Source: Raillietiella orientalis (Eukaryota). From it: a stretch of 64,000 nt of DNA. Made by a program: the position numbers and the translations under genes. Positions 30,171 to 60,109 of this stretch are shown here, piece after piece (position 1 is the first letter of the stretch; every line of letters begins with the position of its first letter). The DNA is taken from positions 2,604,001 through 2,668,000 of the forward strand of contig JAYWIR010000017.1 in NCBI GenBank assembly GCA_036172245.1. Direction: 5' to 3'. A model generated the notes under the pieces. It was not told where the DNA came from, ran no database searches, and saw nothing but the letters and a program-made list of their open reading frames with translations.

Positions 30171-30172
30171 GG

Positions 30173-30850
30173 TTTATCACCCGATCACACCGGAACTTTT
30201 ATTATAAAAATAAAAAACTTACATATGTAGGGCCATCGGTCCTACATTGCCCGCAAAGGCTCGGAGCCTGCCGAGTAACCGGCACGCAGGTCGGCGAGGT
30301 TCGCCTTGGCAGAGGAGGGAGAGAGAGCGAACAAAAATAAAAATAAAACGAAAAAATATATACGAAAAATTGGGAGGGTTAGGGAAGGGATGACCAGGAG
30401 CTAGAGGGCGTCCTCTGCATCCTTTCCGGGATGCCGGCAAGTTCCCTCTGAGTAGGCCCCAGGTGGGGCCCCATCTACTTGCCGTCCTCAGTGGCTAGGT
30501 TCTTTGCGTTCACTCACACGCGGTGGGTTGCACGATGACGTCCAGCAGCGAGCGGCTGCTGTAGAAGGGAGTGATGCAGTCGCCGCCGCATCTCCGAACT
30601 CGCTTCGTTGTTCATGGCCCACGTGAGGACGGTTTCCTGCAGCCAGGCATTACCGTTCGTGGGCCGGCAGGAGATCCAGGTGCTCGTTCTGGTCAGCTTA
30701 GCCACTCGCCGGAGCTTTAGTCTCGATAGTGTGCCCCCCGAAGAACTGGCGGTCCCTTGTCTTTGCGTGGACACCTCCGTGTTCCCGCTAGTTTGGAAAC
30801 ATAGCTTCATCTGCCAGAAGTCGCTAGGGAGATCGCCACCATACACAGCC
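30173..30850 (-). mobile_element. L1/Tx1-like 3' end (ORF2 C-terminus, 3'UTR, terminal motif), subfamily 1
   Basis: ORF end ELAGIPERMQRTPSSSWSSLP*, T-rich UTR, AATAAA and terminal hairpin. Homologous to 51173-52380, 33796-34070 and 59590-59875. Confidence 0.7.
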
Positions 30851-30858
30851 TCTTTTAA

Positions 30859-32125
30859 CCTGTTAAGAGAGTTTGACGTGTATGTATGTACACGTTTTGC
30901 GAAGGCGCCACTTTGGTGCGTTTGACAGATATACACACCGTGTGAAAAAGGAAAAATTACCCTTTGCCATCAAAATACGAAATTTGAGCAAAAAGTTGGA
31001 ACCATCTCGTTTATTTTACTTATATTCTGATTGGGACTGCAATGTGCAAAATGTCCTTATTCATTTTTTTATCAAAACACTTTTGAAGTGCCAAGTAAAC
31101 AAAAAATTCTTCTTTTTCTTTTTACATAATTGAAGCTCTAATTGAGGAAAATGATTTTCCTCAATGAAGGCTTCAAATGATCAGTTTGGGCAAAAAGTGA
31201 TCCATGTAGGATTGAACGCAATTCCTGGTCAACAGTTGCAGTTCCCAGAAAACCAAGAAAGAAATGCTCACTTGGTTTGTATGAATTTCTGGATAAGAAA
31301 CCAATGTCCATAATTGTGAAAGGGACTAATTTGTATGCAGGGCAATATGTGGAAATTCATTCGTTGAAGAAACGATCAAGGACGAGAAATTGGAATCGGA
31401 CAAACAACACGGAGATGAAATGTTTCCATCTCAAGACTGATATTTGCAAGGGGTTGCCAGAAAGCCAAAACTTGAGCTGCATTCCTCTAAAAGAAAAGAC
31501 ATATCCACTCCTTTCTTTAGCAAAGTGATGTCCCACCACAGACTTTTGCTGCTTTGCAAATTGATTCGTTCCGAAGATGACCAGAACATGAATTGAAGGA
31601 GCAAAATTTCTAAAACTGAAACTGCTTGGAAGAATATTCGACATAATTGCAAAATTTTTGTATATTCCAGAACAAGGCATTTGTGATGACGAATCCTCGC
31701 TGTCATGGAAAGGGCGACCGTCTCGGAAGCAGTACGTACACCTTCTAAAAGGAGTCGTTTGGGAATGGGACTTCTTGTGCGAAGGTCAATCTGGATACGT
31801 TTGGAATTTCTGTGCATACATCGGCAAAAATACAGAACGAGGTCAAAATCATTCTCAGCTTAAGACAGCGACTCTCATCGTTCTTCAACTTTCTCATCAC
31901 CTGTTAGGCCATGAGAAGACAATTTCTTATGAGTCTTTTTTATTTTTCCCATGTATGAAGCTACAATAACGGAATTTTTATGCTCAATTTTTTTTTCTTT
32001 TTTTTTTTCATTGAAATTTACAATAGATACATTTTCTGTGCGTTTGACTTATATACACTTTTTCGCCAATTTCAAGTATGCACCCACGGGTAGACTTTGT
32101 TAAAAAAAACTACTTGCTTAACAGG
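30859..32125 (+). mobile_element. piggyBac-superfamily DNA transposon, internally deleted and non-autonomous
   Basis: TTAA(30855-30858)|CCTGTTAAG ... CTTAACAGG|TTAA(32126-32129) gives perfect terminal inverted repeats with a TTAA target duplication. A subterminal motif GCGTTTGACnnATATACAC occurs at about 30918 and 32040. A transposase remnant lies inside. Confidence 0.92.
31270..31969 (+). pseudogene. piggyBac (PGBD4-like) transposase pseudogene, N-terminal half
   Basis: Fragments YEFLDKKPMSIIVKGTNLYAGQY...SRTRNW..TNNTEMKCF and YIPEQGICDDESSLSWKGRPSRKQY...LCEGQSGYVWNFCAYIGK match the IVxxTNxYA and DES/WKGR/SGYVWNF motifs of piggyBac DDD transposases. Contains stops and frameshifts; the C-terminal half is absent. 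Confidence 0.9.
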
Positions 32126-32189
32126 TTAAAGAGGGAACTTCACATACCAAAGACGCCTGTCGCCAACCTCCCGTCTTTTTTTTCTTTTT

Positions 32190-32372
32190 CTTTATTGTCC
32201 CTTCCCTCCGTTCCCTACTTTTTGAAAGCCGTCCTGCGTGCCGGTGGTTATCCCGGATGAACTTCTTTTTTTTTTTTTTGTCAACTCTTGTTCTTTGAGG
32301 GGATGCTCTTCTTCCCCTCAAATTTGTGGTTGGTTTTTCGAAATAAACGTCCCCGCTTGGGTCAGGTCAAAA
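32190..32372 (+). mobile_element. L1/Tx1-like 3'UTR fragment, subfamily 2
   Basis: Shares CCGTTCC, TTATCCCGGA, GAACTTCTTTT and AATAAACG-CCCCG blocks with the UTRs at about 47780-47935 and 54400-54560. Confidence 0.5.
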
Positions 32373-32399
32373 CCTAAGAGCAAAAAGGCCATTTCCTCC

Positions 32400-33750
32400 G
32401 TGCGGTTTCGAAAGAGCGAGGAGCCAATTCATCACCTCTTGAAGTCTCAGTTCGATCTTCTGCTGCAGAGCTGGCGAGCTGCTTCGACAGAGTTGATCTG
32501 CATGTCATCGGAGCAGTCCCTGACTTGACACGAAATGGTAAAGTCTTCAAAGAGTCTGACCACGGCACTTTCGCGCGACCTGACCTGCCAACCGCTCGCA
32601 TTCGTCTCGGGTCTGCGGAGATCTCTTCAAACTGCAGGTGCATTGCCGATTATTGGCCAGGGTCCATTTCCTTAATGGTTCCGAAAGATGGATTGCGTCA
32701 CAGACAGAACAAAAAATAAGAAATTGCATCAAGTCGAAGAAGTGCTGACCTCCCCCTCAAGCATTCCTCTGCACCCACGACGCCATGATTCCTTTAATTA
32801 GCATCTTCCCAGTCCATTTGCGAAAGCAATCCTCATTAAGAGAAGATACTCTGATGAGATTTGCTGCGCGATCTCGCAAAACCCAGCTTTCTGCTGTTCC
32901 CATCAGCGGCGCTTGCCACCAGGAAGCACGTGATGAATTGTGTGGGATGGATGGGGAGCCATCGCAGAGGCTTTCCGAAAATGATGGATGGCGAGTTCGG
33001 GATCGTGTAAACAAAAACCGGGTCCCTCCATCGGAGGACGTAGAGACGGCGAAGGTGCACGAAGGAGAGAAGAGATGCCGCCCACAAGCACCCCGGGATC
33101 ACACGGGAACGTTACGGGTAACAGGGACGCGTTTCGTCCTCCGAACACGGGTTTGCCGGTAGATCCGCGCGTCCCGGCCGTGTCCGTTTGGAGGAGGGCA
33201 AGTCCGGGGACGCGCGAGGCGAAACGATGCCCTCATCGGGTCATCGCCGACTTCTCTCTGTCTTCGGGCTCTTCGGCGCGTGCCTGGCACGTTCTCCAGG
33301 AGAGCTGCTAGCAGAAGGAATCTGCGTTCTTCCTTAGACCATCCGACTGATTCGCCCCTGTTCCGACTCTCGGCGGGCAGGGAGGTGGTCCTAGCATTGG
33401 AAGGATTACGGATTTTCAGTGGAGAAAGAGAAGCGGATGACCCTGCTGGGAGTACAGGGAGGGTTCACAGACATCCCGCATCGCTCTCCCCCGACCTCCG
33501 GTTGGGACACGCTGGAAGATCGAGCGGAAGGAAAGGAGACCGCGGATGCTTCAGAAGGTTGCGCATCCAGAAGACCGGCGGCGCAGGCCCGATTAGAACG
33601 ATTCGGCGACCCCCGAATCATCCTGCTGGAAAGAAAGCGCCTTGGGGAGGCCGAGCTCGAGAGAAAGGGGCTGCCTCAACCCATCTCCTCCGGATGCCAA
33701 GGAGGAGGAAGGGAAAAGGAAGGGGACGGGATGAAGAAGAGTTCGAAACG
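32400..33750 (-). mobile_element. L1/Tx1-like relic, endonuclease and linker
   Basis: ALSFQQDD (~IFLQET) near 33625 and PLRKWTLAN (~GxWKLN) near 32665. The start is homologous to the plus-strand endonuclease start at about 36690. Confidence 0.45.
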
Positions 33751-33795
33751 GAGAAAGGAAGGGGGAGGAGAAAAAAAGGGGAGAGGAGGAGGATC

Positions 33796-35750
33796 TTCCG
33801 GTCACGCCGGGGCGTTTTCCGAAAGAGCAAATCAAATTACCACCTGTGGTGAGTGGGGCACGCAGTCCCACCATGCCCGAATCTACAAGAAATCTGCCGG
33901 GTTGCGGCGCACAGATCGGCGAGGCTCACCTCAGCAGCTGTGAGGAGGGACAAAACCAAAAAGAAAATGGAAAAATAAATAAATAAGGAGCACACTCTAA
34001 GGGGGCACGGAGAGGGGTCACTGTCTGCTGGAGGGCATCCTCGGCATCCTATCCAGGATGCCGGCAAGTTGTTGGCATCCTGGCCCAGTCGTTGCTGGAG
34101 GAGGCACGCGTGCGGCCATTCCTACTGACTGGGCAAACTGGTCCGCAGAGACGTGTATCCCAGACAAGGAATCGGGAACGGACGAAACTCCGGTGTCAAA
34201 CAAACGGAGGCTCTGGCTGAACTCCGGAGCGATTGTGGCTCCTTCTGTTTCTTGGAGAGGGAAAGGTCGCACGTTCCCTGTAGGTGGCGCGCGTCCTCCT
34301 TGCGCGTTCCTCTCGTCGTTCGTTTTTGTGGACCAGTTGGAAAATGTTTCTCAGAATGAGGCGGAAGATGGATGTGCATTTGTCAGAGCCCTGGTCCCAC
34401 GAGATTGTGTCCAAGAGATGTCCCTTCCAGCAATCCAACCTCTGTCTGGACTGTGGCGACTAAGGTTCTTCTTGGACGCCTTCAGAAGAGCCGCTTCTCT
34501 TTTCCCCGCCGACAGCTCGTGATCTGTGATGTCGGAGGGTGCTCCGCGCTTTCCACTCGCAGTCCCCAAGAGGTCGCAGACCGCTGCGGCACCTCTGAGC
34601 TGCCTTCGGGGCGTGGGAAGCTTCAGAGATGAGTGCCTTCCTCTGAGCGGGCCCAACCCGGAAGCAGCGCGGGTCCTGACGGCTCTCACCCGACCTTCTC
34701 CTTCCCGGCTCCTCCCCCGAAAGCGACATCTTCATGATCTCGCGTTCTTCAGCACGTCTCTCCACCGGGAAGGGCATCCAACAGCAGGGATGTCAACATG
34801 TCTTGCATCGCAGACTCCAGAAGTCGTCTGCCACCTCCGGAGTTCCCGCTGTCCAAGGCAGTGCGTCACAGCTGGACTAGGTCGCGCCCCCGGCCACTTT
34901 TCCAGCCGGAGAGCGCCTGCGCTTCTCAGACTTCCTCCTCAGCCGCGAATCCTGCCTCGTTCCTCTTCTGGTCCGTGGAAGCAGCAGCCTGGAGGAAGGA
35001 AGGGGATCGCGCACATGGGCAGTCTGGACGAAGAGCCCGCTTCTGCGCCAGGAAGAGGGACACCCCTTTCGGGAACATCAGGAAGGCCACCCACATTCGG
35101 TGGGAGGGTTGGCTGCCAGACACGACCCTCCGTGCCAAGGGTGAACCGGACTGAGAAGCACAACAGGGTAGTCATCCTTGACGACTGTTGCTCCCTTCAG
35201 GAGTACGGCGGCAGAGTTCAAGGAAAGGACCGACGGAGTGTCCGAGGCAGGAAGGCACCTGGGGACTAGAAGGACGAAACGCCTCGAGACATCTCTCCTC
35301 TTGTCCTCCCTGGTTTCGGCGTGAGCACTGGCTGCTGTCGGATCCCTGGGGTCACGAGATATCAGCCAACGTCCGTGACCTGAGGGAGTTGGGATTGCTT
35401 TGATACACGCCGATGGGACGCGGAGAATTGTTGACTCCCTTCGAGCGTTTGGTGCGGCAAGGACTCCTACTGGATCCGTCGACTCGGCCAGGCGAAGGAC
35501 CGGACCACCTTGCGAAGACGCCTGCAAGGCTGCATGTCCTCCCATTCGGGTCCGCTGGGGGCAGCGGCTTTTCCTCTCCCTCCTTCCTTCTCATGCAGAA
35601 GGGAACCTCGTGACCCACCTCTTTTTTTCCGGAGAAGGAGAAGGAAGAGACGAGCGCGCACGCCGGTCCCACCCCCATCGGAGTCCCCTCCGGAGAGAGG
35701 AGACTTCCGTCACCACCACCCCTTTCCCCCACGGGCGCGGTAGAAGCTCA
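33796..35750 (-). mobile_element. L1/Tx1-like relic (endonuclease fragment, C-terminus, 3'UTR, terminal motif), subfamily 1
   Basis: GERGGGDGSLL (endonuclease), SLKLPTPRRQL...CDLLG...DITDH (zf-RVT-like), ORF end LAGILDRMPRMPSSRQ*, T-rich UTR, terminal AAAACGCCCCGGCGTGACCGGAAGA. Confidence 0.62.
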
Positions 35751-36669
35751 GCGCAGCGGGAAAGAACCGAGCAGATCGCGCGCGCGCGCACACCCCCGGG
35801 GTCGACACTCCCTCCGTGGAGGCGCGCGGCGACGGCGCGCGCGCTCCCTCCATTTGTCGCTCGCCCGCGGCGGCACCCGGAGTCAGGCGGCGTCCGCCGT
35901 CCTTTCTTTGTCCGGTTTTCTTGTGAAAGGCGCGCCCGTCGCCATTCGTCAGCGGCAGACGGGCGCGTTTCGGCGTCGCTTCGGTCCCCGCCTGGCTGGA
36001 GGGGGCGACGGTGCGAAAGAGGAGGAGGAGGAGGAGGAGGAGGTCTAAAAGGAAGAAGAAGAGACTCCCTCTTGACGACTCCACGCGGCCCTGGAGCTGC
36101 GCGCCCCTCCGGTGTGACAGCTCCAGCGATTAAAGAGCGCAGTCGTGCGCATCAATCAGCGCGGGGAGGGAAAACAAGGCGGCTCCTCCCTACCGGGTTA
36201 CGCGCACGCACGCGCGCTCTCCCGAGGACACCCGCGATCCTCCTCCGCTTTTCCCCCTTTCGCTTCCCGAAAGCTCCCGGAGGGGGAGGCAAAGGGCGCG
36301 GTGGCAGGTTCCCGCTAGACGCGAGCGCGGGGCGCGGGGCTGCGGGCGCGCGCCCAGATGGCGCGACCGTCCGATCGTCTCCAATTGTTCGCCCGCGTGC
36401 GCGGACGACGCGGCCTTCGCTCCCTTGGCGCGGAGTGAAGGACGACCTCACCCGGGACTTACGGATTCCCGGGACCTCCACTGGACTGCATTCCACGAGC
36501 CGCTCCTCCTCTTCCTCTATCCCCTATTCCTACTTTCCTCCTCCTTTCTTCCTTCCCCTCCCTACCTCCTCCTCCTCCTCCTATACTTCCCCTCCCTTCT
36601 TCCTCCTTCTCCTCTCTTCCTTTCTCTCCCTTCTTCCTCCTCCTCCGCTCTTCATCCCTCCTTTAGCAA

Positions 36670-40800: not shown

Positions 40801-40899
40801 GGAATACTCTCTCTAGAAAAATATGGAACGCGGCGCTCCTCAGATACCTTCACCATTCTCCGGCTTCTCCCCTGCTCCTTAGGCTCTCTACGATGCGCT

Positions 40900-43560
40900 T
40901 GGTTCGCAAAGGTCTACAAATGAACTCTAAATGAATGCCGGCGCCATCGGTCGAGAAGAGACTCTGTCGCAACTGTGCCCCAGGCCCACAGGGAAGTGAT
41001 ATCCCTCACACGCTGCCTCTGCACCATCCGACACCGTTGGCAACGCTCCTCTCCCCCCTTCTCCTCCAGCAGAGACCCTGATGCACCCTAGAGGATACAC
41101 CCTGGACATTACTGCAGCGGCACGGAACTTGCTCCTGCTGCAGCAATGCAAGGCGGGGCTGTGTTCCCGGAGGCTCCACAGCGGGAGCTGGCTGCTCATC
41201 GGGGTCTCGCCAGCAACATTAACCACGTGACGTCTCCACCAGGAAGAAAGCAGACCTGGACAGTTTCCCACACCTGGACAAGAGACCGGAGAAGAACGTC
41301 TTAAGGGTAGCAAAGAGACCGTGGCACTAGACTCAGTGCAGAACCTCGGCTCCACCGTCCTATCTATTTATCCCGTTTGCGACATCGCCTGCCTCGCGCC
41401 GCAGTCAAGTGGTTAGGCGGTTCCCCTTCCAAGTGCTATTGGGCTCAGATAGGGACCATCCCATGAGCGTATCATGAGCTCCTTCGAGAGGTTAGAGCGA
41501 CGAAGACGTCGTCACAAGGGTGAAGAGGTGGGAGGGACTTATTCATCCTGACAGGAGCCGCGGCCTCTCGCTCCCGGGGATTCTCGAGAGACTCGGGTGG
41601 GCATGCTCATCGGGAACTTCCAGGTCAATTCCGAATCATCTCAGGCGGCAGAGGGTGCTACGTGGAAATGAAGTTCCAAGAGCACGACTCCGAAGTCAAC
41701 AGGCAGGTTATCCAAAGGGAGCACAAGCCCCACACCCATCAGACTGAATATCTCGGACTGGAACGAGTTTCTCTTTAGACCGGGCGGCCTTCTCACCCTG
41801 AATCGCCCTCCTTGCTGTGCGCGTTTTTTCCCGACCTGAGCGTCGGCGTTCGCTGAGCCGCGCGCTCCCACGACACGTCAACGTCATGTTCATTGAATTT
41901 CAAGGAGCAGACGTTCCAGCTTGGCCATCTCCTTACCGACTGCAGGGACAATTCATTTCACAAGTACAATTTGTGCGGTTAGACCGGCGCTGACATCTGC
42001 CGGTCTCAAACGCAACTCGGGACGCAACCACCGAGCGAAGGGAGTCCCGCGAAAGACGACAAATAAATGGGAGATGGTGGGGAGAGGACCCGTGGCACCG
42101 CAAGCGATCCATAGGGGCCTTCGTTGGGCAGGGAAGGGAGAGGAGCGAGTCACGATGCGTCCACCGGTTTCGGGATGAGCCCCCTACCGCCACACATTCC
42201 CGATTGGGCCGCCTCGCTGCCCTCCATTTCGGCTGCCCGGCACCGCTCGCACGTGGCGGGGAATCGCTAGCGAGGAGGCGGTTGGCGACCATGGACATGC
42301 TGGCACATCCGCTCAAGCGGATCCTCTGGGTCAGCAGCATCGGGGAGCTCGGGTGCCCACGGGATGCTCCAGCCTTCCTCATTCCGAAAGCGCGTGCAGG
42401 CAGGGTTCCCAACACAGCCTGCAGCGGGTGTACGCTCCCCGAGGCGTCGCGGCGACCGCTCCTCGTTTCGGGGGAGCGCAAGTTGCGTCCCGCCATCAGG
42501 ATGGCAGTCCAATGGTGACAGAGGAACAGGACTGAGACCGGGATGTGGAAGCTTCGACGGGAAGCGCCGGGAAACTCCATCCATCTTTGCGGGTATCCTG
42601 ACCGTGGTCCTTGGGCGGGCTTCGTTCTCCAGCCGAGACGCTTCCCGCCGTGAGATGATGGGCTTGGCGATTCTCGCGCGGACCAGGAGGTCGTGCTGTT
42701 TCCATGACGAGGCCACCGTTTTGAAACGACGGTTTGCGGGAAGCTCCGAGCGCAGGAGCCATCATGACCTCTGTCCACCGCTCAAGCTATTGCTCCGTCC
42801 GTCGTCCAGCAGGCCTTTCCCCACAACCGTAAAGCCGCCTCCTCCCTCGTCGCCTCCGCAGCTTGCCGAGCAATCACGTGACCCGCATTCAAGAGCCGAG
42901 AATGCGCGAAAGCGCCTCCGCACTACGACAGCCACTGAATCCAGAGTCCCGTGGAGGCCGAGTGGCGCCATGGTTCCGTCCGGTCGCCTGTCCCCCTTTC
43001 TGGCGCACCAGTAAGTCCCCAGCATCCCGCGAGGAGAAAGCAGTCCTCGAGCAGAAGGCTATTCTCGCCATCTGGACCTCTCAGTCTACGGTTAGCGAGT
43101 ATTCGAGACGAAGGCGGAAACGCTCAGCGCATCTTCTGGAAAACCACGATGCTTTCTGAGATCAAAGGTGCTCAGGACGGCATGAAGATGGGGGGGAGGG
43201 AGGTCACGAGGGGCAGGGACGAGGAAGAAGGCACTCGGTGTGCAACCCTCCGGGATCGCTACGAGCAGGACGGAAATCTTTCGGACGCTCGAAACGTGAC
43301 GTCACGAGCGCGCCGAGCATGCGTTCCTGGACCACGCCAACCTTCGGTGGACAGGAAGATGAAATCCGTGGACTCCTTCGCACAGCCCCCCATCCGGCAG
43401 CTGACACCCTGACCAGAGTCCGACTCTTCCTCGCTGCGCGCGGCCGCTGAGATCTTCGCTACGAGCCAGCGTGCGGACGCCCGGGGAAGGTGGCTGCGGC
43501 TGCTACCTGCACGCGTCTGAGAAGCCACGCGACCCCAAGTGACCTGCCATGCCATGCCAC
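40900..43560 (-). mobile_element. L1/Tx1-like relic, ORF2 (endonuclease, RT, zinc finger; internally deleted)
   Basis: Endonuclease-like segment at about 43300-43560, SSPMLLTQRIRL...MVANRLL (~RPISLLNxDYKI...LANRL) at about 42270-42350, and a frameshifted CPG-x-ETV zinc finger at about 41260. Confidence 0.55.
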
Positions 43561-46899: not shown

Positions 46900-47935
46900 C
46901 TCGTTTTCACGCCCTGAGCTCAAGGAGCGAGGTCCCGAGTAAGGGAACAGGTAAGCAGGATTTTCAAGTGCCCTTGCCTGTGGCCTTCGTTTGCCTGATG
47001 CTCGCGCTTCTTGGCGCACCTGATTTGTCGTTAGCCACGAATTTTAAAGCAGGATTGCCCTGCTCACTGTTTTGAATCAATCCTATTTTCTGGCGGCTGA
47101 TTTTTTTCCTTTTTTCCTCATAGACGCACGAGGATGAACGTGCTGTGTGGGTGGCTGCTAGGTGACAAGGAAAAGTCCAGCTTCTTCGAAGCAAATGTGC
47201 TGCATTTTGAGGCGAAGTTATTCAGGTTCTGGCAGCGACACACTCGCGGAATGAGAACAGGCCTCTTCTTCTCGAACAGGACTGGAGAAACAGAATGAAG
47301 CGAAAAGGACTCTGCACTTGAGCGCCATCATCAATCAGGACCGGTTTCAGTCATCCATCCGTTCTGGAATGAGCACGCCGCCTCTTGGCGCTTCCTTCTG
47401 AACCCGCTGCCTCCGGCAGCAGACCGCAATCTTCCTGGGAGCCTCGAGTCCAGGGAGAGGCGGGCTCTGGAGCATGCTCGAGGAAGAACCCAACACCATG
47501 GGTTGCATCCGCGCCATCATCACGACCCGCCATGTGCTTGAGACGCAGATTGCAGCGAAGGTGGGTCACCCTGGCTGGCGGTCGCCGCCTGTTTGAGGAC
47601 GGCTACTAAGTGACCTCACCTGGAAGAAGGAGATCGCCGATTCTAGAAGGAAGGAGCGGCTGTCCATCCTTTCTTTATCATTTGTTGTCCCCTCCCATGC
47701 AATCCGGACTTTTCCGGTGTTTTTTTTCTTCTTTTTACAAGGAACCAGCGATACCAAAGACTTTTTTATTTATTTTTTTATTTTTTCTCCCATCCGTTCT
47801 GGACTTTTAGTGGCCGACTTTCGTGTCGGTGGATCCTCCACCTGAACTTCTTTTTGCCTTCCGTCGGGAGCAGCGCGCTTCCAACTAGTTTGTTCTTTTT
47901 GAGTAAACGCCCCGAGGCGACCGGATGATAAATTT
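46900..47935 (+). mobile_element. L1/Tx1-like 3' end, subfamily 2
   Basis: IFWRLIF-like segment and a decayed zinc finger at about 47240, then a T-rich UTR and TTCCAACTAGTTT...GTAAACGCCCCGAGGCGACCGGATGATAAA. Confidence 0.55.
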
Positions 47936-48619
47936 CCCTGCACGTGGTTCCCATTCCTTCGACTTCGTCCGAAGACAAAGGAAACTCGCTCTTGTCGACT
48001 GGCTTCGCTGTGGGTCGAATCCACGCACTCCTAGATGATCAGCACACGGTCCATTCCGGGATCTGCGACGCTTCGCGGTCAAAAAAATTTTCGCCGCCGG
48101 ATCGCCCGCCACTGGTCTCCCACTTCCTGGGCAGTGATGAGAGCAAGCATTCCATCCCCCAAGAAACTTCTCTCTAAGCCCACCTCTCGTACCCTCACAT
48201 TCTCGACTCGAGGAGGAACACAACACACTTCAACCACAATCTTATATGTGACGTGACCTCAATCCCCAATAACATGGAAACCCAGGAGCTTTCTTGGCTG
48301 GATGGTGCTCTCTCCCCGTCTTGATTTGCTTGGACGCCTCTTTCGCGCTGCCTCGCAACAGCTCCTGCGTGTAATAAAGGCAAATCTCTGCAGGCTTTTT
48401 TTTTCTATTTATTTATTTTAATTTTGCTCACGGTTGTTGTAACACACATTTCTCTGGTAGCTCCTTTCCTTCCTCCCTCTCCCCCCCACCTTCCACCCCA
48501 GACTTGCATCTCGACCGTCATTCTGCAATATATCATTCCCTTCTTTCTTGTTGGTGGCATTTCTTTTGAAGAAACCCTTCAAGAAAGCCTTTCCTGGCCC
48601 GGCTCATCCAACGTTACAG

Positions 48620-49010: not shown

Positions 49011-49016
49011 CATCAG

Positions 49017-49043
49017 ATGTATGTGTGTGTGCGTGTGTGTGTA
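49017..49043 (+). repeat. Imperfect (TG)n microsatellite
   Basis: atgtatgtgtgtgtgcgtgtgtgtgta. Confidence 0.8.
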
Positions 49044-50799: not shown

Positions 50800-52480
50800 C
50801 CTCGTTGCTGCTAGTCTATCCGTGGGTCTCCTGCAGCCCTATAAACTGAAATGCATGGCGGCAGGAGGCTCTCGATAGCTGGACCACCACTTTGGAAGTG
50901 CGCCCAGAGGAACTGCGACCACTGCAGGGTCTCCTACCCAAACCTCCGGGAGATCTGCAAGAATCGACGGAGTAGTTAGCCGTCACACACCTCTCTGCAA
51001 CAATGTCTGCCCTCAGGGCAAGCAATGGCAGCACTCAACCGACGTGATGAGAGTTCTCCTGCAACATTTCAGGAGTCCGAAAACTGAACAGCTGCAAGAC
51101 GAGCGCGCTGGTGAACGCAGCAACATTTCGTTTCCGAGCAAAGAGACTCCTTCGGCGGAGTGACCCGCTTGGTTTATCATCCGGCGTGACCGGGTATGTT
51201 GTATGTTTATCATAAAAAACAAAAAACTTACATGTGTAGGGCCATCGACCCTACATTGTCCGAAAAGGCTCGGAGCCTGCCGAGTAACCGGCACGCGGGC
51301 CGGCGAGGTTCGCCTTGGCAGAGAAGGAGAAAGGGGAGAACAAAAATAAAAATAAAACGAAAAAATACATACAAAAAATTGGCAGGATTAGGGAAGGGAT
51401 CTCCAGGAGCTGGAGGGCGTCCACTGCATCCTTTCCGGGATGCTGGCAAGTTCCTTCTGAGTATGTCCCAGGTGGAGCCATCTACCTGCCGTCCTCAGGA
51501 AGCGCAGGACGAAGCAGATGCCGTCCCTGTCCTCCTCTCGCGTAGCTCCAGATTGCCGCAATCCCGCGAAGGCAGCAAGAAAGGGCTGCTGGGGATGCAG
51601 TAGGTGAGAGGGCATCGCGCAAGAGGCGCTCCATCACGTCCCTGGGATTGTCTGTCTGTGCACCAAGGACCGCTGCCTAACGCAACCACAGGGGCCGGAG
51701 GGCAACACAGTCTACAAGCAGGTGCGGGAGCTGGGATTGCCGCCCCTCTCACCTGCAACAGTTGGGGTCCGCAGCCTTCCGGGTTTAGTGAGACCGGCGG
51801 GCGTTGCATGGGAGACTCAGTGTAGCAGCAAAAGTGCCGACCCCTCCCATTTCAGGAGGAAGGCCCTGTTGTTCTTCAGCGCCGGAGGCCACTCGAGGTC
51901 TTCCTATAGGATTCTCAGCAGCTCATCTCAGCGCAATAGTCCCTTCGATGGGATACTTGGGGTCTCAGCGTCTGTGAGCTGGCCCGTAGTCCAACCACCT
52001 AATTCCTTTGCTATTACACCGATCTCACATCGGACCTCACATTTGGCCAGCTGGTTGCTGCCCAGGTGCTCTCTGAGGGAGGGCAAAGAACCTCCCTAGC
52101 CTCATCGACCGGCTAGGGAGGTTCTTTGCGTCCACGCACGCGCGGTAGAAGAGAGTGATGCAGTCGCTGCCGCATCTCTGGGCTCACTTCGCTGTTCTTG
52201 GCCAACGTGCGGATGGTTTCCGGCGACCAGGCACTACCGTTCATGGGCCGGCAGGAGATCCAGGTGCTCGTTCTGGTCAGCTTGGCCACTCGCTGGAGCT
52301 CCAGTCTGTATGCTCGTGTCCCCTGAAGAACTGGCGGTCCCTTTCCTTTGCGTGGACACCTCCGTGTTCCTCCTACATTGGAAACAGAATGTTCTGCTGC
52401 TTCTGCACAGATTCCAGTGCGACCAGCGCAGGCACCTGGTTTCCGGGAGAGTGGCATCTTTGAACTGTTCAAGGTGCGGG
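50800..52480 (-). mobile_element. L1/Tx1-like junction: ORF2 C-terminus, 3'UTR, terminal motif, then the start of the next element
   Basis: Homologous to 30080-30800 with an insertion of about 610 bp (~51498-52110). FIGLQETHG (endonuclease QETH) occurs downstream at about 50820-50845. Confidence 0.65.
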
Positions 52481-52699
52481 GCGGTGTAATCGCTCGCGCA
52501 CCTTTTCTTAGACTTCAGTGCCCTCGAGGAATCGTGTTGGGGACTCGCTTCGGCGCTCCGGAGACTGCGAACACTGCAGAGACGCGCGCGAATGCGGAAA
52601 GCAGTCTCGTGATCCGTTAGCCTCTGCGGGTCTTCGCTTCTGCCAAGGGAGGAACTCGGAGGCGTCCCCGGTCTCGGCTACTTAACGCCTCTGAGATGC

Positions 52700-54560
52700 T
52701 TGCCGAAAGCGCCCGTCAGTCTTTCCCACTTATCGGCTCGTACAGAAAGCAAAAGAAAACGCTTTCCAGGACTCCGACATCGGATGATCGATGCAACCTG
52801 AAACTGAAAGGGAAGTGGCAGTGGACGGCGACACAGAGCCTGGCTCTTCTGCCGCGGTCAATTAGGGATCTTTGAAAGGAAGACGCCCGAAGCAGCTCGG
52901 ATTTCAGAGCGCAGCAGCAGCCGCGAGCCAGCATGGCCGCTCGGCAGCGTTACCGGCATGGCCAAAATCGAGTTTCCCTGATCGATCCCGGCTTCAGCGA
53001 GATCGATGGATCTTTCTCGAGAGATTCTTATCGCCCCAGACGCGATGCTGCGACTTGACCCTCCAAAAATTGGCGTTTTGCACGGCCGGTCGATGAGGGA
53101 ATCGAAGAGAGTGATGCGTGGTGTCCTGGGCCGCCTCGAGAACCGAGGAGTACGCGCTTCGATCTTCCGGTCCGCAAGGGAAACGATGGAGAAGAGAGGG
53201 TTCCCTGACCCGCCTGCTGCTGACTGGGTATGGGGTGGAGCAACTCTGGAGGATGCTCCGAAAACAATGCATGCAGATGGCCCCACCGGGTACATCTTAT
53301 GCCCCCCATCCTTCAAGATAACGCTGGTTGGCCCACTGGCTTTGGGTGTGGCACTAGTGAAATCCTGAAGCCCCCGGATACCCCGTTGACCTTCCGGGAT
53401 CGGAAGTCGACCCTTTGCGGTCATTCCTGGAATCAAGGAGCCACTTTCTTTCGGGACTAAAGAAGAACAGAAGAGTCCGGGAGACTACTGGTGACTTTCA
53501 CTCATTGATACAGGACGCGGTGAAGTCTCCGACCCTAGCCATCACACCCCTTGCCGCAGCGCTGTCTGCCCTCAGGGCGAGAGACGACCTAGCCAACCGG
53601 CGAGGTGGGAGTTTTCTTTCACCATCACGGGAAATACAGAACACCTCGGTGCCTGGAAGACGCGTGAGTTGGTGGATGCTGCCACTTCGCGTTCGGTGGC
53701 GAAGGGACTCCGTCGGTGGGGCGAACTTTTGAGTGTTGCTCCTGAAAAACTTGTAATCCCTCCCTATTGTGTGGACGGTTCGTTGTTCCCCCTCGCCTGG
53801 GAGCAGGCCGTACTGCCCTCCATCCACTGGGGATTCCAGTGTGACGAGCGGCGGCACCGAGTTTCCGGAGGGGTTGCATCCCCGAACTGTCGTGCCAGAT
53901 GCAGGTCGGCGGAGTCGATCCCGCCGCACCTGCTTTTGGACTGCGGTGCTCCCCTCCAAAAACTGCGGCGGAGGCTGGCAACAGCACTCCTGCACCAGGA
54001 AGACACCGCCCGAGAGTGCTGCGGCAGTTTTTCGCGCCGAGAGGCCTCTCGATGGGCGTTGTTACTGCAACCATAGGTTGCATCCGTGCCAGGCTCTAGA
54101 AACCACCCCGCAGAGAGGGGAGGTCACCAGGATGGCAGCCACCTACTACATCAGGAGGGCTGCAAGGTGGCCTCACCTGGAAAAGGAATCCAAGGAAGAG
54201 ATCACCGGCATCCACTGCCGATTAGATGGACGGTTTGGAACGGTGGACTTTGATGGATCCTTGTCTCCTTCCTCCCTTTATTCTTTGTTTCTTATCCCCG
54301 TCCGACTCCGTAACTTTCTTAGTGCTTTTTTTTTTTTATTCCGGTGAATACGGAGCGAAACCAAAGATCCCTGCCCCTTTCCCACCCATTTTGTTTGTTT
54401 TTGTTGTCCGCTTGTCCCTCCCCGTTCCGGACTCTCTGTTATCCCGGACTGCCTAACGGCAGACGCTCCCTTTTGTTTCTTGCTGTCTTCGGTTTGACAC
54501 TCTGTTCCCAACTGGTTTATTCTTAATAAAATAAATGCCCTGGCGTGATTGGGTGAAAAA
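52700..54560 (+). mobile_element. L1/Tx1-like relic (RT end, thumb, CCHC finger, 3'UTR), subfamily 2
   Basis: PPKIGVL (~KILGV), ILCPPS, SPNCRARCRSAESIPPHLLLDC (CCHC zf-RVT), T-rich UTR, TTCCCAACTGGTTT...AATAAATGCCCTGGCGTGATTGGGTGAAAAA. Confidence 0.7.
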
Positions 54561-54599
54561 CTCCCTTCGCATACTTTCTTCCCCACGACTCCTGTAGGA

Positions 54600-57500
54600 C
54601 CCAGGGACCTAAACAACATTGCTTTAACTTTTCTGTATGCCTACTATTGCAAGTTGCAACAATCGTCACAGCCTGTCCCAAAACACGCCAAAGTGAACCC
54701 ATTTTTCGTGACTTTCTGATTGCCCCCCAGCAGTCCATTTCTTCCCATATCCCCCCTCCCCAATCCCTTTTTTTTCTTTTGGTTCGCTGAGTACCTCAAG
54801 AGCCGTCGCGCCTCTGGCGGCGGCTCACGCAGCTCTTTGACGCTGTTTCACATCACCCGAGAGTGCGTGTAGCCCTTGTAGTTACAGGGAATACCCCGGG
54901 AGGGGACGAATCCCTCCCGGGGTATTCCCAGGAATCCAGGAAGGAATCAATGTCTCTTCCTCTCTCACGCTTGGGGAGGGGTGATCCCTGGAATGGAAAT
55001 CACCTTCACCCTATTGGTCTCCGAGGAGAATCTTCCTTATTCTCTCCGAAGGGACTCCGGAGGGGTCGGCTCCATTTTTTCTTCCCCGAAGGGAACCCGG
55101 AAAGAATCCACTATCAGAAATGTCTTCTCCGGATGGATTCCGCGAGGAAGTCGCTCCGTTTCCTCTCCTCTGAAGAGAACCTTGACCTTCCCCGTCGAAG
55201 CGGAGCGGACGTGTTTTTCCTGCGCTCCGACAGCTCCAGTTCGGGAAGCTTTTTTTCGTTTGAAGAGAACCCGAAGGGACGCTTTCGAAATTCAGAAGGG
55301 CGCTTCCTTTCCGGAGGGACCGGCTCGCTTCCTTGCACTCTTTGGAGAGGTGGTAACACACCTACTCCACGGAAGGGCCACCCTCGAAGGAGGAGGTCCG
55401 TTCCTTTGGACAACCGGAGGGGGAATTCTCAATCCCTTGATTCCTGGAAGGACCCGAAGGTGGACTCCCATTGTCCTGGCTCTCATCGGGAGCATCCGAT
55501 TTGAACCGCTACCAGTGCCGCACCCGGATGAATGTGGACCAACCAGCGTCATCTTTGCAGGAGGAACTCGGAATCCACGACTCACTCCCCATCTCTCGGC
55601 GTCTATTCTTGCCGGTGGTGGTCCACACGCACGGACCGCAACCACGTGATCTCCGACGCGGTCCTCAATCCTCCTGGACGTTGTTTCCCTTTCGCAAGAG
55701 GGGCGAGGCTCAGACGCGTGGAAAGGAGGCAACTCGGAAGGGAAGGAGAAATCCGGCTAGTTCCTCGATCGACTGCTCGAGTCCATCGTACCAACTCCCT
55801 CCACGAAGGAAGGAGAATCAACGGCAACAGACGTCAGCAAACGGGAAGCAGTTGAAGTGTTAACGGTCGTCGGATCGGTGCAGAAGACTCAGCAGCCGAC
55901 AGTAGGGTTCGGTGCCTCGTGCACCTGATACCACTGGATCCTCATCTTTGCGCTCCGCGCAAGGTGTCGGTATGGTAGCGGAAGCAACGATACTGGAAGC
56001 TGGGGAGCGCCGCAATCCGCAGCTCGCTCAGCGTTCCTGCGGATCCTGGAAGTCGCCGTAGTCTCGCGAATATGGTCTCCGGCCTGCTCAAGGGAGAGGA
56101 GGAGGGGGTGTCTTCAGGAAACGGAAAACAGATAGTCGGCGGCGTAGACTTGCAGCCGATCAAAGACAACAGCAGAAAGGCGGCAGCAACAACTGGAAGC
56201 CGGGATGCTGTCTCTCGAAGCGCCTCTTCGGCTCTTCCTGCCCGTTTTTGATATCCGGTTGGAGTTCTCAGTTCTCTGTTCCGTTCGCTCCCTGCCGTCG
56301 CCGCGATTCAGGGACGTCCGCACCCGGAGTGAAGGATGAGGGAGCGAGATTCTCTCGCTGGCTTCCGGTGATGAAATCCAGCACTCGCAAAAGGGGTCCG
56401 CCGAAAGCGCGTTGGTTTAGATTGCGCACGAAAGAGAGAGGAAAACGCTGCCGCAAATCACTGCCGCCGTCCCGTGTGCCTGAAGCGTGTCCATCACAAT
56501 GAGAAGAGTGCGTGCTGCCTCGCAGCTCCCCCTGCTTATTTACCACGCTCGATGGCTCCGGAGAGTCTTGCATCTTAGGGCTGGAGGAGGCCCGGAGGTC
56601 CCTGGGCTCGCGCGCGGCCGCCTCCACGTCCAGGCAGCGATCCTGAGCCTCCGGGAAAAACGGGACGCGTCGCGGCCTTCTCCCGAAGAGTGGGAGGAGG
56701 CTACCTCGGAATCGGCTCCTGCAGCCACCCTCTTCCTGGTGGGAACCCGGGGAGGATCTCCCGTTCCTGAAGAAAGGAGTTCCTCGCTGCTCGAAAGGAG
56801 TGCTGGTGCCTCACCAAGTCCTCCCGAGAAACGAGCGTCAGATCCGTGGGAACGTCGGCAGCGGCGTCGCGCGGCGCCGAGGTTCGCACGCTGCTGAGGA
56901 TCGTTCGCGGCGCTCGGGAGCACAAACTTCCTCGATCGGCTCCTTTCCGAGCGAGAGAGGGGGGAGAGAGGTGGGTGGTCGCGAAAACAGAGGAGCCTCC
57001 TCTTCGCCTGATCTTCGCGCGAACCAACAATCCGGCATTCCTCCACGATAAATCACCTGTTTGCGGCGTCTCGTTTGCGCAGCAGATAAAACACGCGCAA
57101 TCACCTGCATCTAAGCGAGGGGCATCTCCTGATACCCTCTTGTGTCACAGGGAGCGCATGAAACCACCTGCGCGTTGATCAATCTCGCGGGGGAAGCGTC
57201 CTGTCGGTGCCTCCTCCCTCTCCCCTTCCTCCCCGCGAGCGGAGGAGGCAGGAGAATTACTGGCATCGGAGAACTGGAGGTCGCACTAGGGAGGGTTGAC
57301 TCCCATCTCTGGAAACACGAGAGAATTCTCTCGTTTCTGCTTATCGGCCTCCTCTTGTGGTTTTCTTTTCTTTTCGTTCTTTTCCTTTTCTCGGGGATGA
57401 CAAAGGAGTCGCGCGGATCGAAGCTCGATGTCCGCTTCTTCCGCCTTCACTGGCGAGACACCTGCGAGCGTGGACTGAGCAGCACGACTCGACGCTATTG

Positions 57501-57700
57501 GCGTTTCGAAACGCCAGGTCTTCAAGAAGTCCGGCTCCTCACTGCAAAGGAGAACCTTTTAAAGAAGAGGTTCCTTGTTGGCGCGCAGTCTTGCAGCTCA
57601 GGAGTGGCCCGTGAGTGCAGCGCATCAGCTTCCTCTTCTTCCTGTTTTCTTGAGCTGATGCGCGTTCTCCTTACCTCCTCGTCGTTCCTCCAGTTCGACA
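54600..57700 (+). mobile_element. L1/Tx1-like relic (5' region, ORF1, endonuclease)
   Basis: ARFLALFGEVV...WTTGGG (ORF1 LxxFGxV...TG) at about 55320-55420 and RRYWRFET (~GYWKLN) at about 57500. Confidence 0.5.
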
Positions 57701-58199
57701 GTCACCATTGCGTTGCTGCTGGCGAGCGTCTGGAGACATCCTGCTCTGTTCCACTTCCCCTCGCTGTCCGTGCTCACCCATCATTCACAAGCATGCATCC
57801 ATTCAATCTGTCTCCATGGCAACGAAAGCAAGGGAACAAAAGAGCTAAACGCGACTAGGTAAACAACTCTCCAAAAACGACTGTAACAAGCTGGAGAAGG
57901 CAGCAGCTTCCTTCTCATTCCTTCCTCTTCCTCTTCCTCTTGCACCTCCTCTCTCTTGCCTTCCTCGTCCTCAAACCGGTGCCCAACTGGGAAAGGCGGC
58001 AGCAGAGGCTGCTTGCTACCTTTCTCGTGCTGCTCCTGTGATTTGACAGCCCGTGACAGGGTTGCTTCAGCCACTCACAGAGAGGAGCAGGAGAAAGGGC
58101 CGTCTGACTTGAGCGCACTGGCAGTCGGAGGCGAGCATGGAGGAGCGAGCCGGAGGGAATTCGGAGCTGGTTCCAGGCTCGGATGGCAAGGATTCCTCA

Positions 58200-58780
58200 G
58201 GAGAGACTCGCGAAAGCCTCCCTGCCTTGAGAAGCGCAAGGAATGACCCCCGAAATTCCAGAAATCTCGTTTCAAAGAGATTTCTGGGATTCTGCCAGTC
58301 TTACGCGGAAGGCGGAAGCATCTGCAACAGTGAAGTAACAGGACTTCAAGATGCCCGGAAGAACGTGGCGATAGGGATACACCAAGGCGTCTCCCGGATG
58401 ATTCCGGGAATGAGAGATTGAATTAGATGGGAAGTCTCCTGGCACCTTAAGATTCCTTCCCAGATCAAAAGGGAGCGAGGTTCACCAGAGCAGCAAAAAG
58501 AGCGAGTGTGAGGGAAAAAAGCATGCAGTCGACCACGTAAGCGAAGTTGGCTGACGCTGCTCAAGTGCCAAAGACTTCAGCCATGTTGCGGATGACTAAC
58601 GTCTGCTGATCAGTCACTGAGAAAATCGACTTTCCTCTGATCGACTCGACTCGATGAAAGTTTGCTCCGGGACTTCCGGTCAGTAAAGAAAACCCAAAGG
58701 TTCGTAGCGAATAGCCAGGAGGGTCCACGAAAGGAGGCAGAGCGTGGGCGGGGCACTCATGGGAAACCATTCTCTTGCTC
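58200..58780 (-). mobile_element. L1-like RT core fragment, inverted relative to its neighbours
   Basis: VSHECPAHALPPFV (~GVRQGCPLSPLLFV) at about 58730-58770. Confidence 0.4.
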
Positions 58781-58939
58781 TATCCTCGACGTGTGCTGCG
58801 TGCCTTTTCGAAAAGAATCGTAGGCACATTTACTCCTCAAGATCGACACACTATATTCTCCCTACATATAAATAAGTAGATATAACTATATAATCTCCAT
58901 TGAGACACAAACGACCTTCCATGCAAATATAAATAACTC

Positions 58940-59875
58940 CGTTTGAACGTCATGATTGATGACCTCCACGATCCTATTCAGTTGCTACAGAAGAGAACAC
59001 TCAGTGCTCCTCCAAGCCGACCAACTGCTCCGCTATCCTCCCTCGACGCAGCGCTGCCAGCTCACGGAAGATGCGACCCCAAGTGCCTCCCCACGATGAC
59101 TTTTGAGCTGGGGGCGAGCTGCTGGGTATTCCGGCGGAAGATCTGCAGTGGCTTCCAGCGCTTATGGACAGACACACCCTCCCATTAAAGTGGCAGGAGT
59201 CGGCGCTGCTGCTGCTGCCCGGGAGCCTTTCGTGTAACGCCCGGCGGCATCATTGGACGCGGATGTGTGTGGATCCCAACTGTGGCAGGTACGGAGGACG
59301 CGAATCCCTCCTGCACCTGCTAGTGGGCTGTGTTGCCTTCAACCCCTCTAGGAACGCTTTGCAGCGACCTTAGGAATTCCTGGCGGCAACTCTAGGCACT
59401 CTGAAACGCCTCTTCGCTAGGGACGCACTTCGGGCGTCTGCCTCGCTAACAGCCCTCTGCTGCCTACGCGGGATCGTCGTCGCTGTCTGGAGCCACGCAA
59501 GAAGAGGACCCAGCGATAGGAGTGCCATCCGACTCGCCGTCCGATTCATGAGGATGGCAGCAAGATGGACCCATTTGCACAGCAATATCCAGCAAAACCT
59601 CTCCGGCATCCTTCAAAGGATCCAGAGGACCGCCCCCAACAGACAATGATCCCTTCCCACATCCCCCCCAAGATTGTTTTATTTTTGTTTTGTTTCTTTT
59701 TCTTTTTGTTTGGCCCCTCCCCTCTGCTGCCGTGGTGGACCCCACCGGTCTGCGAACCGGTAACGCGGCAGGTTAGATCAAAAAGGAAGGGAGTGGACCA
59801 CTGGTCCAACCTTGGAAATTGTGAATGTTTATTTATTTTATAAATAAATGCCTCGGCGTACCTGGGTGAGGATAT
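58940..59875 (+). mobile_element. L1/Tx1-like 3' end, subfamily 1
   Basis: DPNCGRYGGRESLLHLLVGC (CCHC finger), ORF end LSGILQRIQRTAPNRQ*, T-rich UTR, AATAAATGCCTCGGCGTACCTGGGTGA. Confidence 0.72.
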
Positions 59876-59949
59876 AAGCCCTAGTGGCTTCACCCGAACC
59901 AGAGCCTTCGCAGTGCTCTTTCACCCAATCGCTGATTTCCATCGTGGGA

Positions 59950-60106
59950 ACGAACACCATTATGGTTGAGATTTCTCGGATCGACATCTCGTTTTCCCGG
60001 CCTGTGTCGATAGACCCTCCCCTTTCTTACTCGTATTCGGCGGTTGGGAACTTTGGTTCCTAACTGGTTTATGCAAATAAACGCCCCGGCGTGACCGGGC
60101 GAGAAA
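59950..60106 (+). mobile_element. Short L1/Tx1-like 3' end fragment, subfamily 2
   Basis: CTCCCCTTT...TTCCTAACTGGTTT...AATAAACGCCCCGGCGTGACCGGGCGAGAAA. Confidence 0.6.
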
Positions 60107-60109
60107 TTT

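Follow-up and report, generated by a model that had tools for sequence, protein, structure and literature searches.

The window, a 64,000-nucleotide stretch of contig JAYWIR010000017.1 of Raillietiella orientalis, contains 11 fragments of one repeat family between 30 and 64 kb, and no copies of the family were found in 1 to 30 kb. A class-A bHLH gene is also present in the window. Eight of the fragments (copies A to H) end at a short motif in which AATAAA precedes a 13-nt CCGG-CGTGA-CCGG hairpin core followed by GTGA, and all eight motif sites were read directly in the sequence at the positions claimed for them in the first-pass annotation. Table 1 shows the eight copies, the three fragments without a tail, and the TSD of copy H.

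Table 1. Coordinates of the repeat family in the window
Feature	Positions	Strand	Details
Copy A, subfamily 1	30169..30493	-	Motif 30173-30205; core 30181-30193 (-) CCGGTGTGATCGG; internal hairpin 30279-30294; paralogue of E
Tail-less fragment, subfamily 2-like	30497..30814	+	Duplicate of 52120-52407 (query from 52-kb fragment, E = 7.5e-54); right part is subfamily 2-like knuckle-region sequence; head-to-head against 5' end of copy A
Copy B, subfamily 2, degenerate	32125..32385	+	Motif 32342-32372; core 32353-32365 (+, degenerate); internal hairpin 32229-32244
Copy C, subfamily 1	33788..34136	-	Exact core 33798-33810 (-); internal hairpin 33905-33919; AATAAA lost
Copy D, subfamily 2	47246..47944	+	Core 47912-47924 (+) CCGAGGCGACCGG; internal hairpin 47814-47829; 5' limit uncertain, 47475 (F query) versus 47246 (E query)
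Copy E, subfamily 1	51169..52010	-	Knuckle in decayed ORF end, about 51530-51817; internal hairpin 51288-51303; unit 51181-51193 inverted
Tail-less fragment, subfamily 2-like, knuckle region	52316..52620	+	E = 9.4e-21 (F query)
Copy F, subfamily 2	53645..54571	+	Knuckle region 53720-53950; internal hairpin 54444-54459; core 54540-54552 (+) CTGGCGTGATTGG
Copy G, subfamily 1	59041..59882	+	Best-kept frame 59092-59646, CVDPNCGRYGGRESLLHLLVGC; internal hairpin 59745-59760; core 59853-59865 (+)
TSD of copy H, 5' copy	59968..59983	+	GAGATTTCTCGGATCG; 0/200 shuffles reach its score
Copy H, subfamily 2, 119-nt insert	59984..60102	+	AATAAA 60076-60081; exact core 60086-60098 (+); ends GGGCGA at 60102
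TSD of copy H, 3' copy	60103..60118	+	GAAATTTCTCGGATCG; 15/16 identical to 59968-59983
Tail-less fragment, subfamily 1-like	62872..63230	+	No motif after fragment

By itself, the 13-nt core is weak evidence: five matches with two or fewer mismatches were found where 1.95 were expected, and at least as many turned up in 5 of 100 shuffles. Homology between the motif sites spans 120 to 840 nt, far past the 30-nt motif. Each of the eight sites was recovered by a single-copy nhmmer query from another site, the strongest E value being 7e-75 and the weakest those of copy B (9e-3 with F as the query and 1.3e-5 with D), and self-blastn also supported the homology of the eight sites. The copies were 60 to 72% identical in self-blastn and formed two distinct subfamilies; copy C (subfamily 1) and copy H (subfamily 2) have an identical 20-mer in common. 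Comparison of the copies bore out the earlier description of a T-rich 3' UTR and of two subfamilies whose UTRs otherwise differ. AATAAA, which had been attributed to every site, is exact at five of the eight (A, B, F, G and H), reads AGTAAA in D and GATAAA in E, and is absent from C. The minus orientation assigned to copy E holds for its flanks but not for its 13-nt palindromic unit, which is inverted relative to all other copies.

In the longer copies, a decayed reading frame with a Cys/His knuckle lies upstream of a T-rich UTR of about 250 nt, and the pattern C-x(2-4)-C-x(7-10)-H-x4-C was found in the conserved frame of copies G, E and F and of the 52.3-kb fragment. A Cys/His motif near the C terminus of ORF2 is present in several LINE clades. 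When 1.84 billion representatives were searched with phmmer, a single relative was recovered (P0002, 87 aa), which is 60% identical to the ORF end (E = 3.8e-17), and word-index searches of protein libraries for longer proteins returned no full-length relatives. The sole pointer towards an L1/Tx1 assignment came from a language-model search (Atlas) with the knuckle, which gave zf-RVT clusters at 0.95 (23 of 30 hits); with the Pfam zf-RVT model (PF13966) the knuckle gave no match at a threshold as loose as E ≤ 10, and no structures were recovered when the PDB was searched with a profile of the knuckle. The LINE family described here is apparently undescribed elsewhere. Neither RVT_1 nor Exo_endo_phos was matched in six-frame reads of 28 to 64 kb or in 286 of the 337 ORFs of at least 90 aa in the whole window, the 51 ORFs left out of the domain search lying in 10.4 to 22 kb. 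The longest copies extend only about 850 to 930 nt from the 3' end and are too short to include a reverse transcriptase (RT). Since no catalytic domain was matched, the term LINE refers here to anatomy.

The copies are 119 to 930 nt long, and all eight end at the motif while their 5' ends vary, so that they share the 3' end but are truncated to different degrees on the 5' side. A 16-nt TSD with 15 of 16 positions identical flanks copy H, and none of 200 shuffles was as good. Because this TSD encloses the hairpin, the hairpin is inside the insert at its 3' end, without a poly(A) tail; copy H ends 21 nt past AATAAA, with at most three A residues before the TSD. The same TSD contradicts an alternative that had been raised earlier, in which the hairpin represents the target site or forms the 5' end of the unit that follows. 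TSDs around the monomers had also been proposed as a check; besides that of copy H, none was found at the other six independent copies, the 5' limits of which are imprecise. The reported absence of a long poly(A) was confirmed at all eight sites, with five or fewer A residues after GTGA. The bases that follow GTGA have only a loose NAAA-YY pattern in common, and no common target sequence was found for the insertions. Among non-overlapping pairs of 400-nt downstream flanks, A-E was the sole clear excess over shuffled controls (47 versus 13), while A-B and C-F exceeded the controls by 1 to 3 points; as judged from this comparison, the downstream flanks appear unrelated except for those of A and E.

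Only two small CCGG hairpin islands are conserved between the subfamilies. The between-subfamily identity is 0.62 in the terminal hairpin and 0.60 in the internal hairpin (CCGG-N8-CCGG, about 90 nt upstream of the terminal one), and 0.20 to 0.31 in most other 20-column windows of the alignment. The terminal stem, of just 4 to 5 bp, sits between AATAAA and the element end and has an unremarkable folding energy (-10.8 kcal/mol, with a z of -1.27, matched by 22 of 200 shuffles). A compensatory change was seen in none of the seven predicted pairs among the eight decayed copies, the changes being mostly C to T giving G-U. Because the copies were dead on arrival, their substitutions say little on pairing either way. 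The two conserved islands fit a stringent-type 3' tail recognized by the element's reverse transcriptase. Since the motif lacks poly(A) and is conserved though the subfamily UTRs otherwise differ, the role in RT recognition suggested earlier for the terminal hairpin is plausible, and we regard the hairpin as a putative RT-recognition stem-loop; recognition itself we infer from these features.

The first-pass annotation had read the motif as the head-to-tail junctions of an L1/Tx1-like family that targets itself or forms tandem arrays. Copies G and H do have the same orientation, H starting 101 nt beyond the 3' end of G, and the clustering of all 11 fragments in 30 to 64 kb, with none in 1 to 30 kb, would also suit such a family. 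However, whereas co-oriented element sequence had been reported after about six of the eight sites, a co-oriented family fragment lies within 300, 500 or 1,000 nt downstream at just one of them, G followed by H, and random placement of 11 fragments in 34 kb produces at least one such case with a probability of 0.35, 0.50 or 0.75, respectively. The ORF1 or endonuclease sequence said to follow the motif was likewise not recovered: six-frame reads of 28 to 64 kb revealed neither an ORF1 nor an endonuclease or RT domain downstream of any of the sites. In addition, the downstream flanks are mutually unrelated apart from the A/E duplicate, copy H has its own TSD in non-family sequence, and nothing beyond the loose NAAA-YY pattern is common to the bases after GTGA. 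With co-oriented neighbors no more frequent than chance in the density-based simulation, the clustering and the single G-then-H adjacency reflect ordinary repeat density and not arrays, and the array reading is very unlikely. A single origin of the 30- and 51-kb junctions had been suspected correctly: A and E are one duplicated locus, with 84 to 86% identity that extends about 90 nt past the motif (blocks 30100-30493 with 51100-51498 and 30497-30814 with 52120-52407). This locus, and the location of all fragments within 34 kb, could suggest that one ancestral segment was duplicated locally to give the copies, without transposition. That origin is extremely improbable for the family as a whole, as the 3'-side flanks are unrelated apart from A/E, the 5' ends differ, the copies are only 60 to 72% identical and belong to two distinct subfamilies, and copy H has a TSD.

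The reading of the motif as the terminal inverted repeat of a DNA transposon was rejected on anatomy, and we give it almost no chance. The inverted pairs A(-)/B(+) and E(-)/F(+), 2.2 and 3.4 kb apart, would agree with it, as would the order of subfamilies 1 and 2, which alternates four times with a -,+ orientation in three pairs, and a piggyBac-type DDE_Tnp_1_7 fragment between A and B (31592-31966; E = 2e-9). Yet in each arm the same decayed ORF end is read in the direction of the motif, which makes each inverted pair two copies with their tails outward and not the ends of one element. Copy H, at 119 nt, has a single such end and a TSD of its own; G and H share one orientation; neither a transposase remnant between E and F nor a TSD around the inverted pairs was found; and the A/E homology continues about 90 nt beyond the motif. 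We also consider it unlikely that the family is a relaxed, poly(A)-dependent LINE in which AATAAA acts as the polyadenylation signal, the hairpin between it and the cleavage site has a role in 3'-end processing or in stability and not in RT recognition, and the tails are short or lost. AATAAA does lie 21 nt before the end of copy H, within the usual signal-to-cleavage distance, and three to five A residues follow GTGA at six of the eight sites. But copy H has kept 15 of 16 TSD positions and still has at most three A residues, which makes tail loss by decay unlikely in that copy, and an A run longer than five was found in none of the seven independent copies. Moreover, the internal hairpin island is equally conserved between the subfamilies, which a cleavage-site element would not explain.

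The common 3' end, the decayed ORF with its Cys/His knuckle and the TSD enclosing the hairpin bear out the earlier view that the motif closes the 3' end of elements resembling non-LTR retrotransposons. We conclude that a lineage-specific family of LINEs (non-LTR retrotransposons), represented by old, 5'-truncated copies without poly(A), probably has its 3' terminus at the motif. The window appears to hold seven independent old 5'-truncated insertions, one locus that was later duplicated (A/E), and three tail-less fragments. In full, the tail consists of the decayed ORF end with the Cys/His knuckle, about 90 codons and a stop, then the UTR of about 250 nt with the internal hairpin, AATAAA, CCGG-CGTGA-CCGG, and GTGA. 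Transcripts of such an element would terminate about 21 nt past AAUAAA, and its reverse transcriptase may recognize the conserved 3' hairpin or hairpins, as in stringent-type LINEs. Target-primed reverse transcription would begin on an A-rich target, at the last templated bases or beside them, the target top strand after the insert probably reading NAAA-YY, with zero to four A residues left. The 3' end is now cleanly defined by AATAAA, the 13-nt CCGG hairpin, GTGA, a second hairpin upstream and no A-tail, a definition of use for repeat annotation of this genome and for the search for partner SINEs. With the self-targeting-array claim removed, the motif becomes the tidy terminal signal of an ordinary repeat.

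Among known systems, the Tx1 clade includes site-specific LINEs, and Zepp, HeT-A/TART and R1 are array-forming elements. The present family resembles them as a probable non-LTR retrotransposon with one co-oriented adjacency (G then H). Unlike Tx1-clade elements, it has no common target sequence, and unlike Zepp, HeT-A/TART and R1, it forms no arrays, adjacency being seen at one of eight sites and no more than expected by chance. Neither a poly(A) or A-rich tail, a feature of L1, nor a specific repeated target, a feature of Tx1, was seen here.

Stringent-type 3' tails are described for most LINE clades (PMC4176376), with examples that include eel UnaL2, zebrafish ZfL2-1 and ZfL2-2, the CR1, RTE and Tad1 clades, and R2 and SART1 (PMC4176376; see also PMC1636434). 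The present family is like these LINEs in having a conserved stem-loop at the 3' extremity of the UTR, kept between diverged subfamilies while the remaining UTR drifts, in not depending on a long poly(A), and in its 5'-truncated copies. It is unlike them in that the terminal stem has 4 to 5 bp and stands between AATAAA and the end, and in that we infer RT recognition. No terminal microsatellite repeat was seen on the family copies, and no partner SINE was found in the window.

According to Ohshima (2012, PMC3472496), stringent 3' tails also occur in L1-clade elements of maize and Chlamydomonas, LINE1-1_ZM and L1-1_CR, which have poly(A) repeats at the end, partner SINEs, and a stem supported by compensatory changes. 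The present family differs from these in the absence of poly(A) and of covariation (0 of 7 pairs), and in its host, an animal to judge from the class-A bHLH gene; if the L1/Tx1 guess is right, it would, like them, combine L1-group membership with a specific, conserved structure at the 3' end. That stringent recognition has been retained or regained here in an animal LINE of the L1/Tx1 group, with the two related 3'-UTR CCGG hairpins as the RT handle and synthesis starting at the last templated bases without poly(A), is doubtful. True L1/Tx1 membership would show that stringent, poly(A)-less elements of the L1 group occur in animals, would carry over to animals Ohshima's proposal, made for plants and algae, of an ancestrally stringent L1 group, and would bear on the evolution of poly(A)-dependent ("relaxed") L1 recognition.

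The motif, AATAAA followed by a CCGG-CGTGA-CCGG hairpin, had been annotated as recurring eight times, and it was read at all eight sites (copies A to H), which proved homologous beyond it. The consensus of the eight sites is AAATAAA-YGCC-CCGGCGTGACCGG-GTGA, then few A residues; AATAAA is exact at five of the sites, carries one-base variants in copies D and E, and is lost in copy C. The 13-nt core of the terminal hairpin by itself is unconvincing evidence: it has three exact matches in the window, and with up to 2 mismatches it has 5 matches versus 1.95 expected, a number reached in 5 of 100 shuffles. Metagenome matches to AAAYGCCCCGGCGTGACCGG were found at 10 loci, all on GC-rich contigs with unrelated flanks, and were taken as chance. 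Using self-blastn and nhmmer with single-copy queries, we found that the homology of every site extends far past the motif; queries taken from elsewhere recovered all eight, with E values from 9e-3 (copy B, the most degenerate) to 7e-75. The nhmmer searches also identified three family fragments without the motif (30497-30814, 52316-52620, and 62872-63230) and no family copy in the 1-30 kb part of the window. The copies fall into two subfamilies, s1 (A, C, E, and G) and s2 (B, D, F, and H).

The motif forms the 3' end of all eight copies; the 5' ends vary, giving lengths from 119 nt (copy H) to about 930 nt (copy F). In pairwise comparisons of the 400-nt downstream flanks, with shuffled controls, only those of copies A and E were alike; the score of the G/H pair came from the overlap of their two downstream flanks. 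For copies B, D, F, and G the core had been set 7-9 nt too far 3' in this comparison, so that the flanks began slightly late, with the outcome unaffected. The common 3' end, the varied 5' ends, and the restriction of similar flanks to A and E show that a dispersed repeat has its 3' boundary at the motif. Copies A and E are one locus that was duplicated later; the two segment pairs, 30100-30493 with 51100-51498 and 30497-30814 with 52120-52407, are 84-86% identical, and about 620 nt present in copy E are missing from the A locus. The proposed origin of the 30-kb and 51-kb junctions in a single duplicated event was thus confirmed. On the element strand, the core of copy E (51181-51193) reads CCGGTCACGCCGG, the exact reverse complement of the consensus CCGGCGTGACCGG, whose orientation is kept in its paralogue A (30181-30193) and in all other copies. 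Copy E has undergone a hairpin-sized inversion, later than the A/E duplication. Copy E is bracketed by inverted repeats, each about 115 nt long, at 50821-50936 (-) and 52146-52264 (+) (query X52, E value of 1.5e-5). Its insertion may have been into another repeat, itself palindromic; the 90-nt flank common to A and E would then be accounted for as well.

Copy H is bounded by a target-site duplication (TSD). The two copies of the duplication are identical at 15 of 16 positions, which none of 200 shuffles equalled, and the element ends 21 nt past AATAAA with at most 3 A residues ahead of the duplication. From this anatomy, the hairpin is part of the inserted element, at its 3' end, the integration generated a TSD, as in target-primed reverse transcription, and a poly(A) tail is absent. 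The alternative raised in the first-pass annotation, that the hairpin is the target site or the 5' end of the downstream unit, is contradicted, since the hairpin lies inside the TSD-bounded insert. At all eight sites no more than 5 A residues follow GTGA, in agreement with the annotated lack of a long poly(A), and the subsequent bases fit a loose NAAA-YY. A TSD search for the other six independent copies found none above chance; those copies are older and their 5' limits imprecise. A candidate for copy D (10 of 12 positions) was rejected, as rough arithmetic gives a chance expectation of about 0.3 per search.

Positions of the internal hairpins and of the insertion boundaries of copy H
Feature	Copy	Strand	Position	Sequence or remark
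Internal hairpin	A	-	30279-30294	
Internal hairpin	B	+	32229-32244	
Internal hairpin	C	-	33905-33919	
Internal hairpin	D	+	47814-47829	
Internal hairpin	E	-	51288-51303	
Internal hairpin	F	+	54444-54459	
Internal hairpin	G	+	59745-59760	
Internal hairpin	H	+	59997-60010	
5' TSD copy	H	+	59968-59983	GAGATTTCTCGGATCG
Insert	H	+	59984-60102	Encloses the hairpin; terminates in GGGCGA
3' TSD copy	H	+	60103-60118	GAAATTTCTCGGATCG

Across most of the UTR, the aligned tails of the eight copies had a between-subfamily identity of 0.20-0.31, and the motif is, as annotated, common to two subfamilies whose UTRs otherwise differ. The between-subfamily identity reached 0.60 at the internal hairpin, CCGG-N8-CCGG, and 0.62 at the terminal hairpin, values equal to the within-subfamily identity. 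Since the identity at these positions is as high between as within the subfamilies, the active lineages retained two hairpin islands as the rest of the UTR drifted, which argues for function. The internal hairpin (consensus CCGGCCTGCGTGCCGG) precedes the terminal hairpin by about 85-100 nt in all eight copies, and the two have the signature CCGG...GCGTG...CCGG in common. The predicted hairpin structure is modest. RNAalifold returned stems of 3 and 4 bp (-4.07 kcal/mol), with a compensatory change at none of the 7 predicted pairs among the eight decayed copies, and the terminal hairpin of copy H folds at -10.8 kcal/mol (z of -1.27), with 22 of 200 shuffles folding equally well. Mutations in the stem are mostly C-to-T, giving G-U; since the copies were dead on arrival, their mutations are no test of the stem.

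When translated, the longer arms have a decayed but conserved frame running towards the motif. The frame of copy G contains LSCNARRHHWTRMCVDPNCGRYGGRESLLHLLVGCVAF, and E, F, and the fragment at 52316-52620 have a corresponding stretch; after this Cys/His knuckle come about 90 codons, a stop, and a T-rich UTR of about 250 nt. Several LINE clades typically carry a knuckle of such form ahead of the stop of ORF2. A protein atlas, as a language-model lead only, pointed to zf-RVT clusters (score 0.95, 23 of 30 matches); Pfam PF13966 did not match the knuckle region even at E≤10, and a PDB profile search returned no match. AlphaFold2 with a 4-row alignment gave the knuckle region a mean pLDDT of 41.2, too low for use. 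Among 1.84 billion representatives, phmmer found three matches to the G frame, of which two were low-complexity repeat proteins and one was real: P0002, an 87-aa ORF from a metagenome, sharing 60% identity with the end of the LINE's ORF (E value of 3.8e-17). This singleton comes from a single contig of 2870 bp and, being metagenomic, indicates that the collection contains DNA of a related host. Word-index searches with the G frame and alignment A3 found no longer protein, and a search of viral_contigs with P0002 gave 34 pattern matches, none confirmed. Six-frame Pfam reads of 28-64 kb detected no reverse transcriptase or endonuclease domain, only a piggyBac-type fragment, and neither domain occurred in 286 of the 337 ORFs 90 aa or longer in the whole window, where the piggyBac-type fragment also appeared (the 51 omitted ORFs lie in 10.4-22 kb); the LINE assignment therefore rests on anatomy.

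The motifs were also considered as terminal inverted repeats of a DNA transposon, since A/B and E/F are inverted pairs and the piggyBac fragment lies inside A..B. This reading was rejected: the same ORF end lies on both arms, facing outwards; copy H, bounded by its own TSD, consists of one end only; G and H run in the same direction; and no transposase-like sequence lies between E and F. A Penelope-like or hammerhead element was likewise rejected, as Rfam at gathering thresholds gave no match in the whole window, neither a hammerhead nor a known LINE or SINE RNA element, and the order of the core does not match by eye. The first-pass annotation had also placed co-oriented element sequence after about six of the eight motifs. 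We found a co-oriented family fragment downstream of copy G only (copy H, 101 nt on); neither a domain match nor a shared repeat lies downstream of the other seven sites. With 11 fragments randomly placed in 34 kb, at least one such neighbour arises with a probability of 0.35 at a limit of 300 nt, 0.50 at 500 nt, and 0.75 at 1 kb, and the window thus does not support head-to-tail arrays or self-targeting.

Other features of the window were also recorded. The piggyBac-type transposase fragment at 31592-31966 (+) matches positions 102-214 of the 349-position DDE_Tnp_1_7 profile (E values of 2e-10 to 2e-9) and lies in AT-rich surroundings between the LINE pieces 30497-30814 and 32125-32385. An inverted pair of 615 nt (41796-42397 and 61920-62532, 92% identity), without a Pfam match or relation to the LINE family, is the youngest repeat besides an exact direct duplicate of 214 nt (11661-11874 and 14428-14641, 100% identity, 2.8 kb apart). 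The latter, which may reflect recent duplication or an artefact of the assembly, lies in a GC-rich block (10-22 kb, 59-70% G+C) and adjoins a class-A-type bHLH open frame at 17333-18271 (-) in the same block (Pfam HLH, E value of 1.6e-17), whose nearest clusters in the atlas consist of bHLH proteins from arthropods and chordates. This frame points to an animal genome. Every 8-kb block of the window has a CpG observed/expected ratio of 0.80-1.00 (G+C of 46-61%), hence no CpG depletion, in contrast to heavily methylated vertebrate DNA.

The motif is a real feature whose anatomy was correctly read in the first-pass annotation, and it belongs to a known kind of element. Transcripts of the family would end about 21 nt past AAUAAA; its reverse transcriptase would recognise one or both conserved hairpins in the fashion of stringent LINEs, and would then prime on an A-rich target, leaving little or no A-tail. 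In stringent-type LINEs, as described in PMC4176376, the reverse transcriptase recognises a 3' hairpin. Stringent 3' ends are also known, from PMC3472496, in L1-clade LINEs of maize and Chlamydomonas, so that an L1/Tx1 reading of this family would have precedent.
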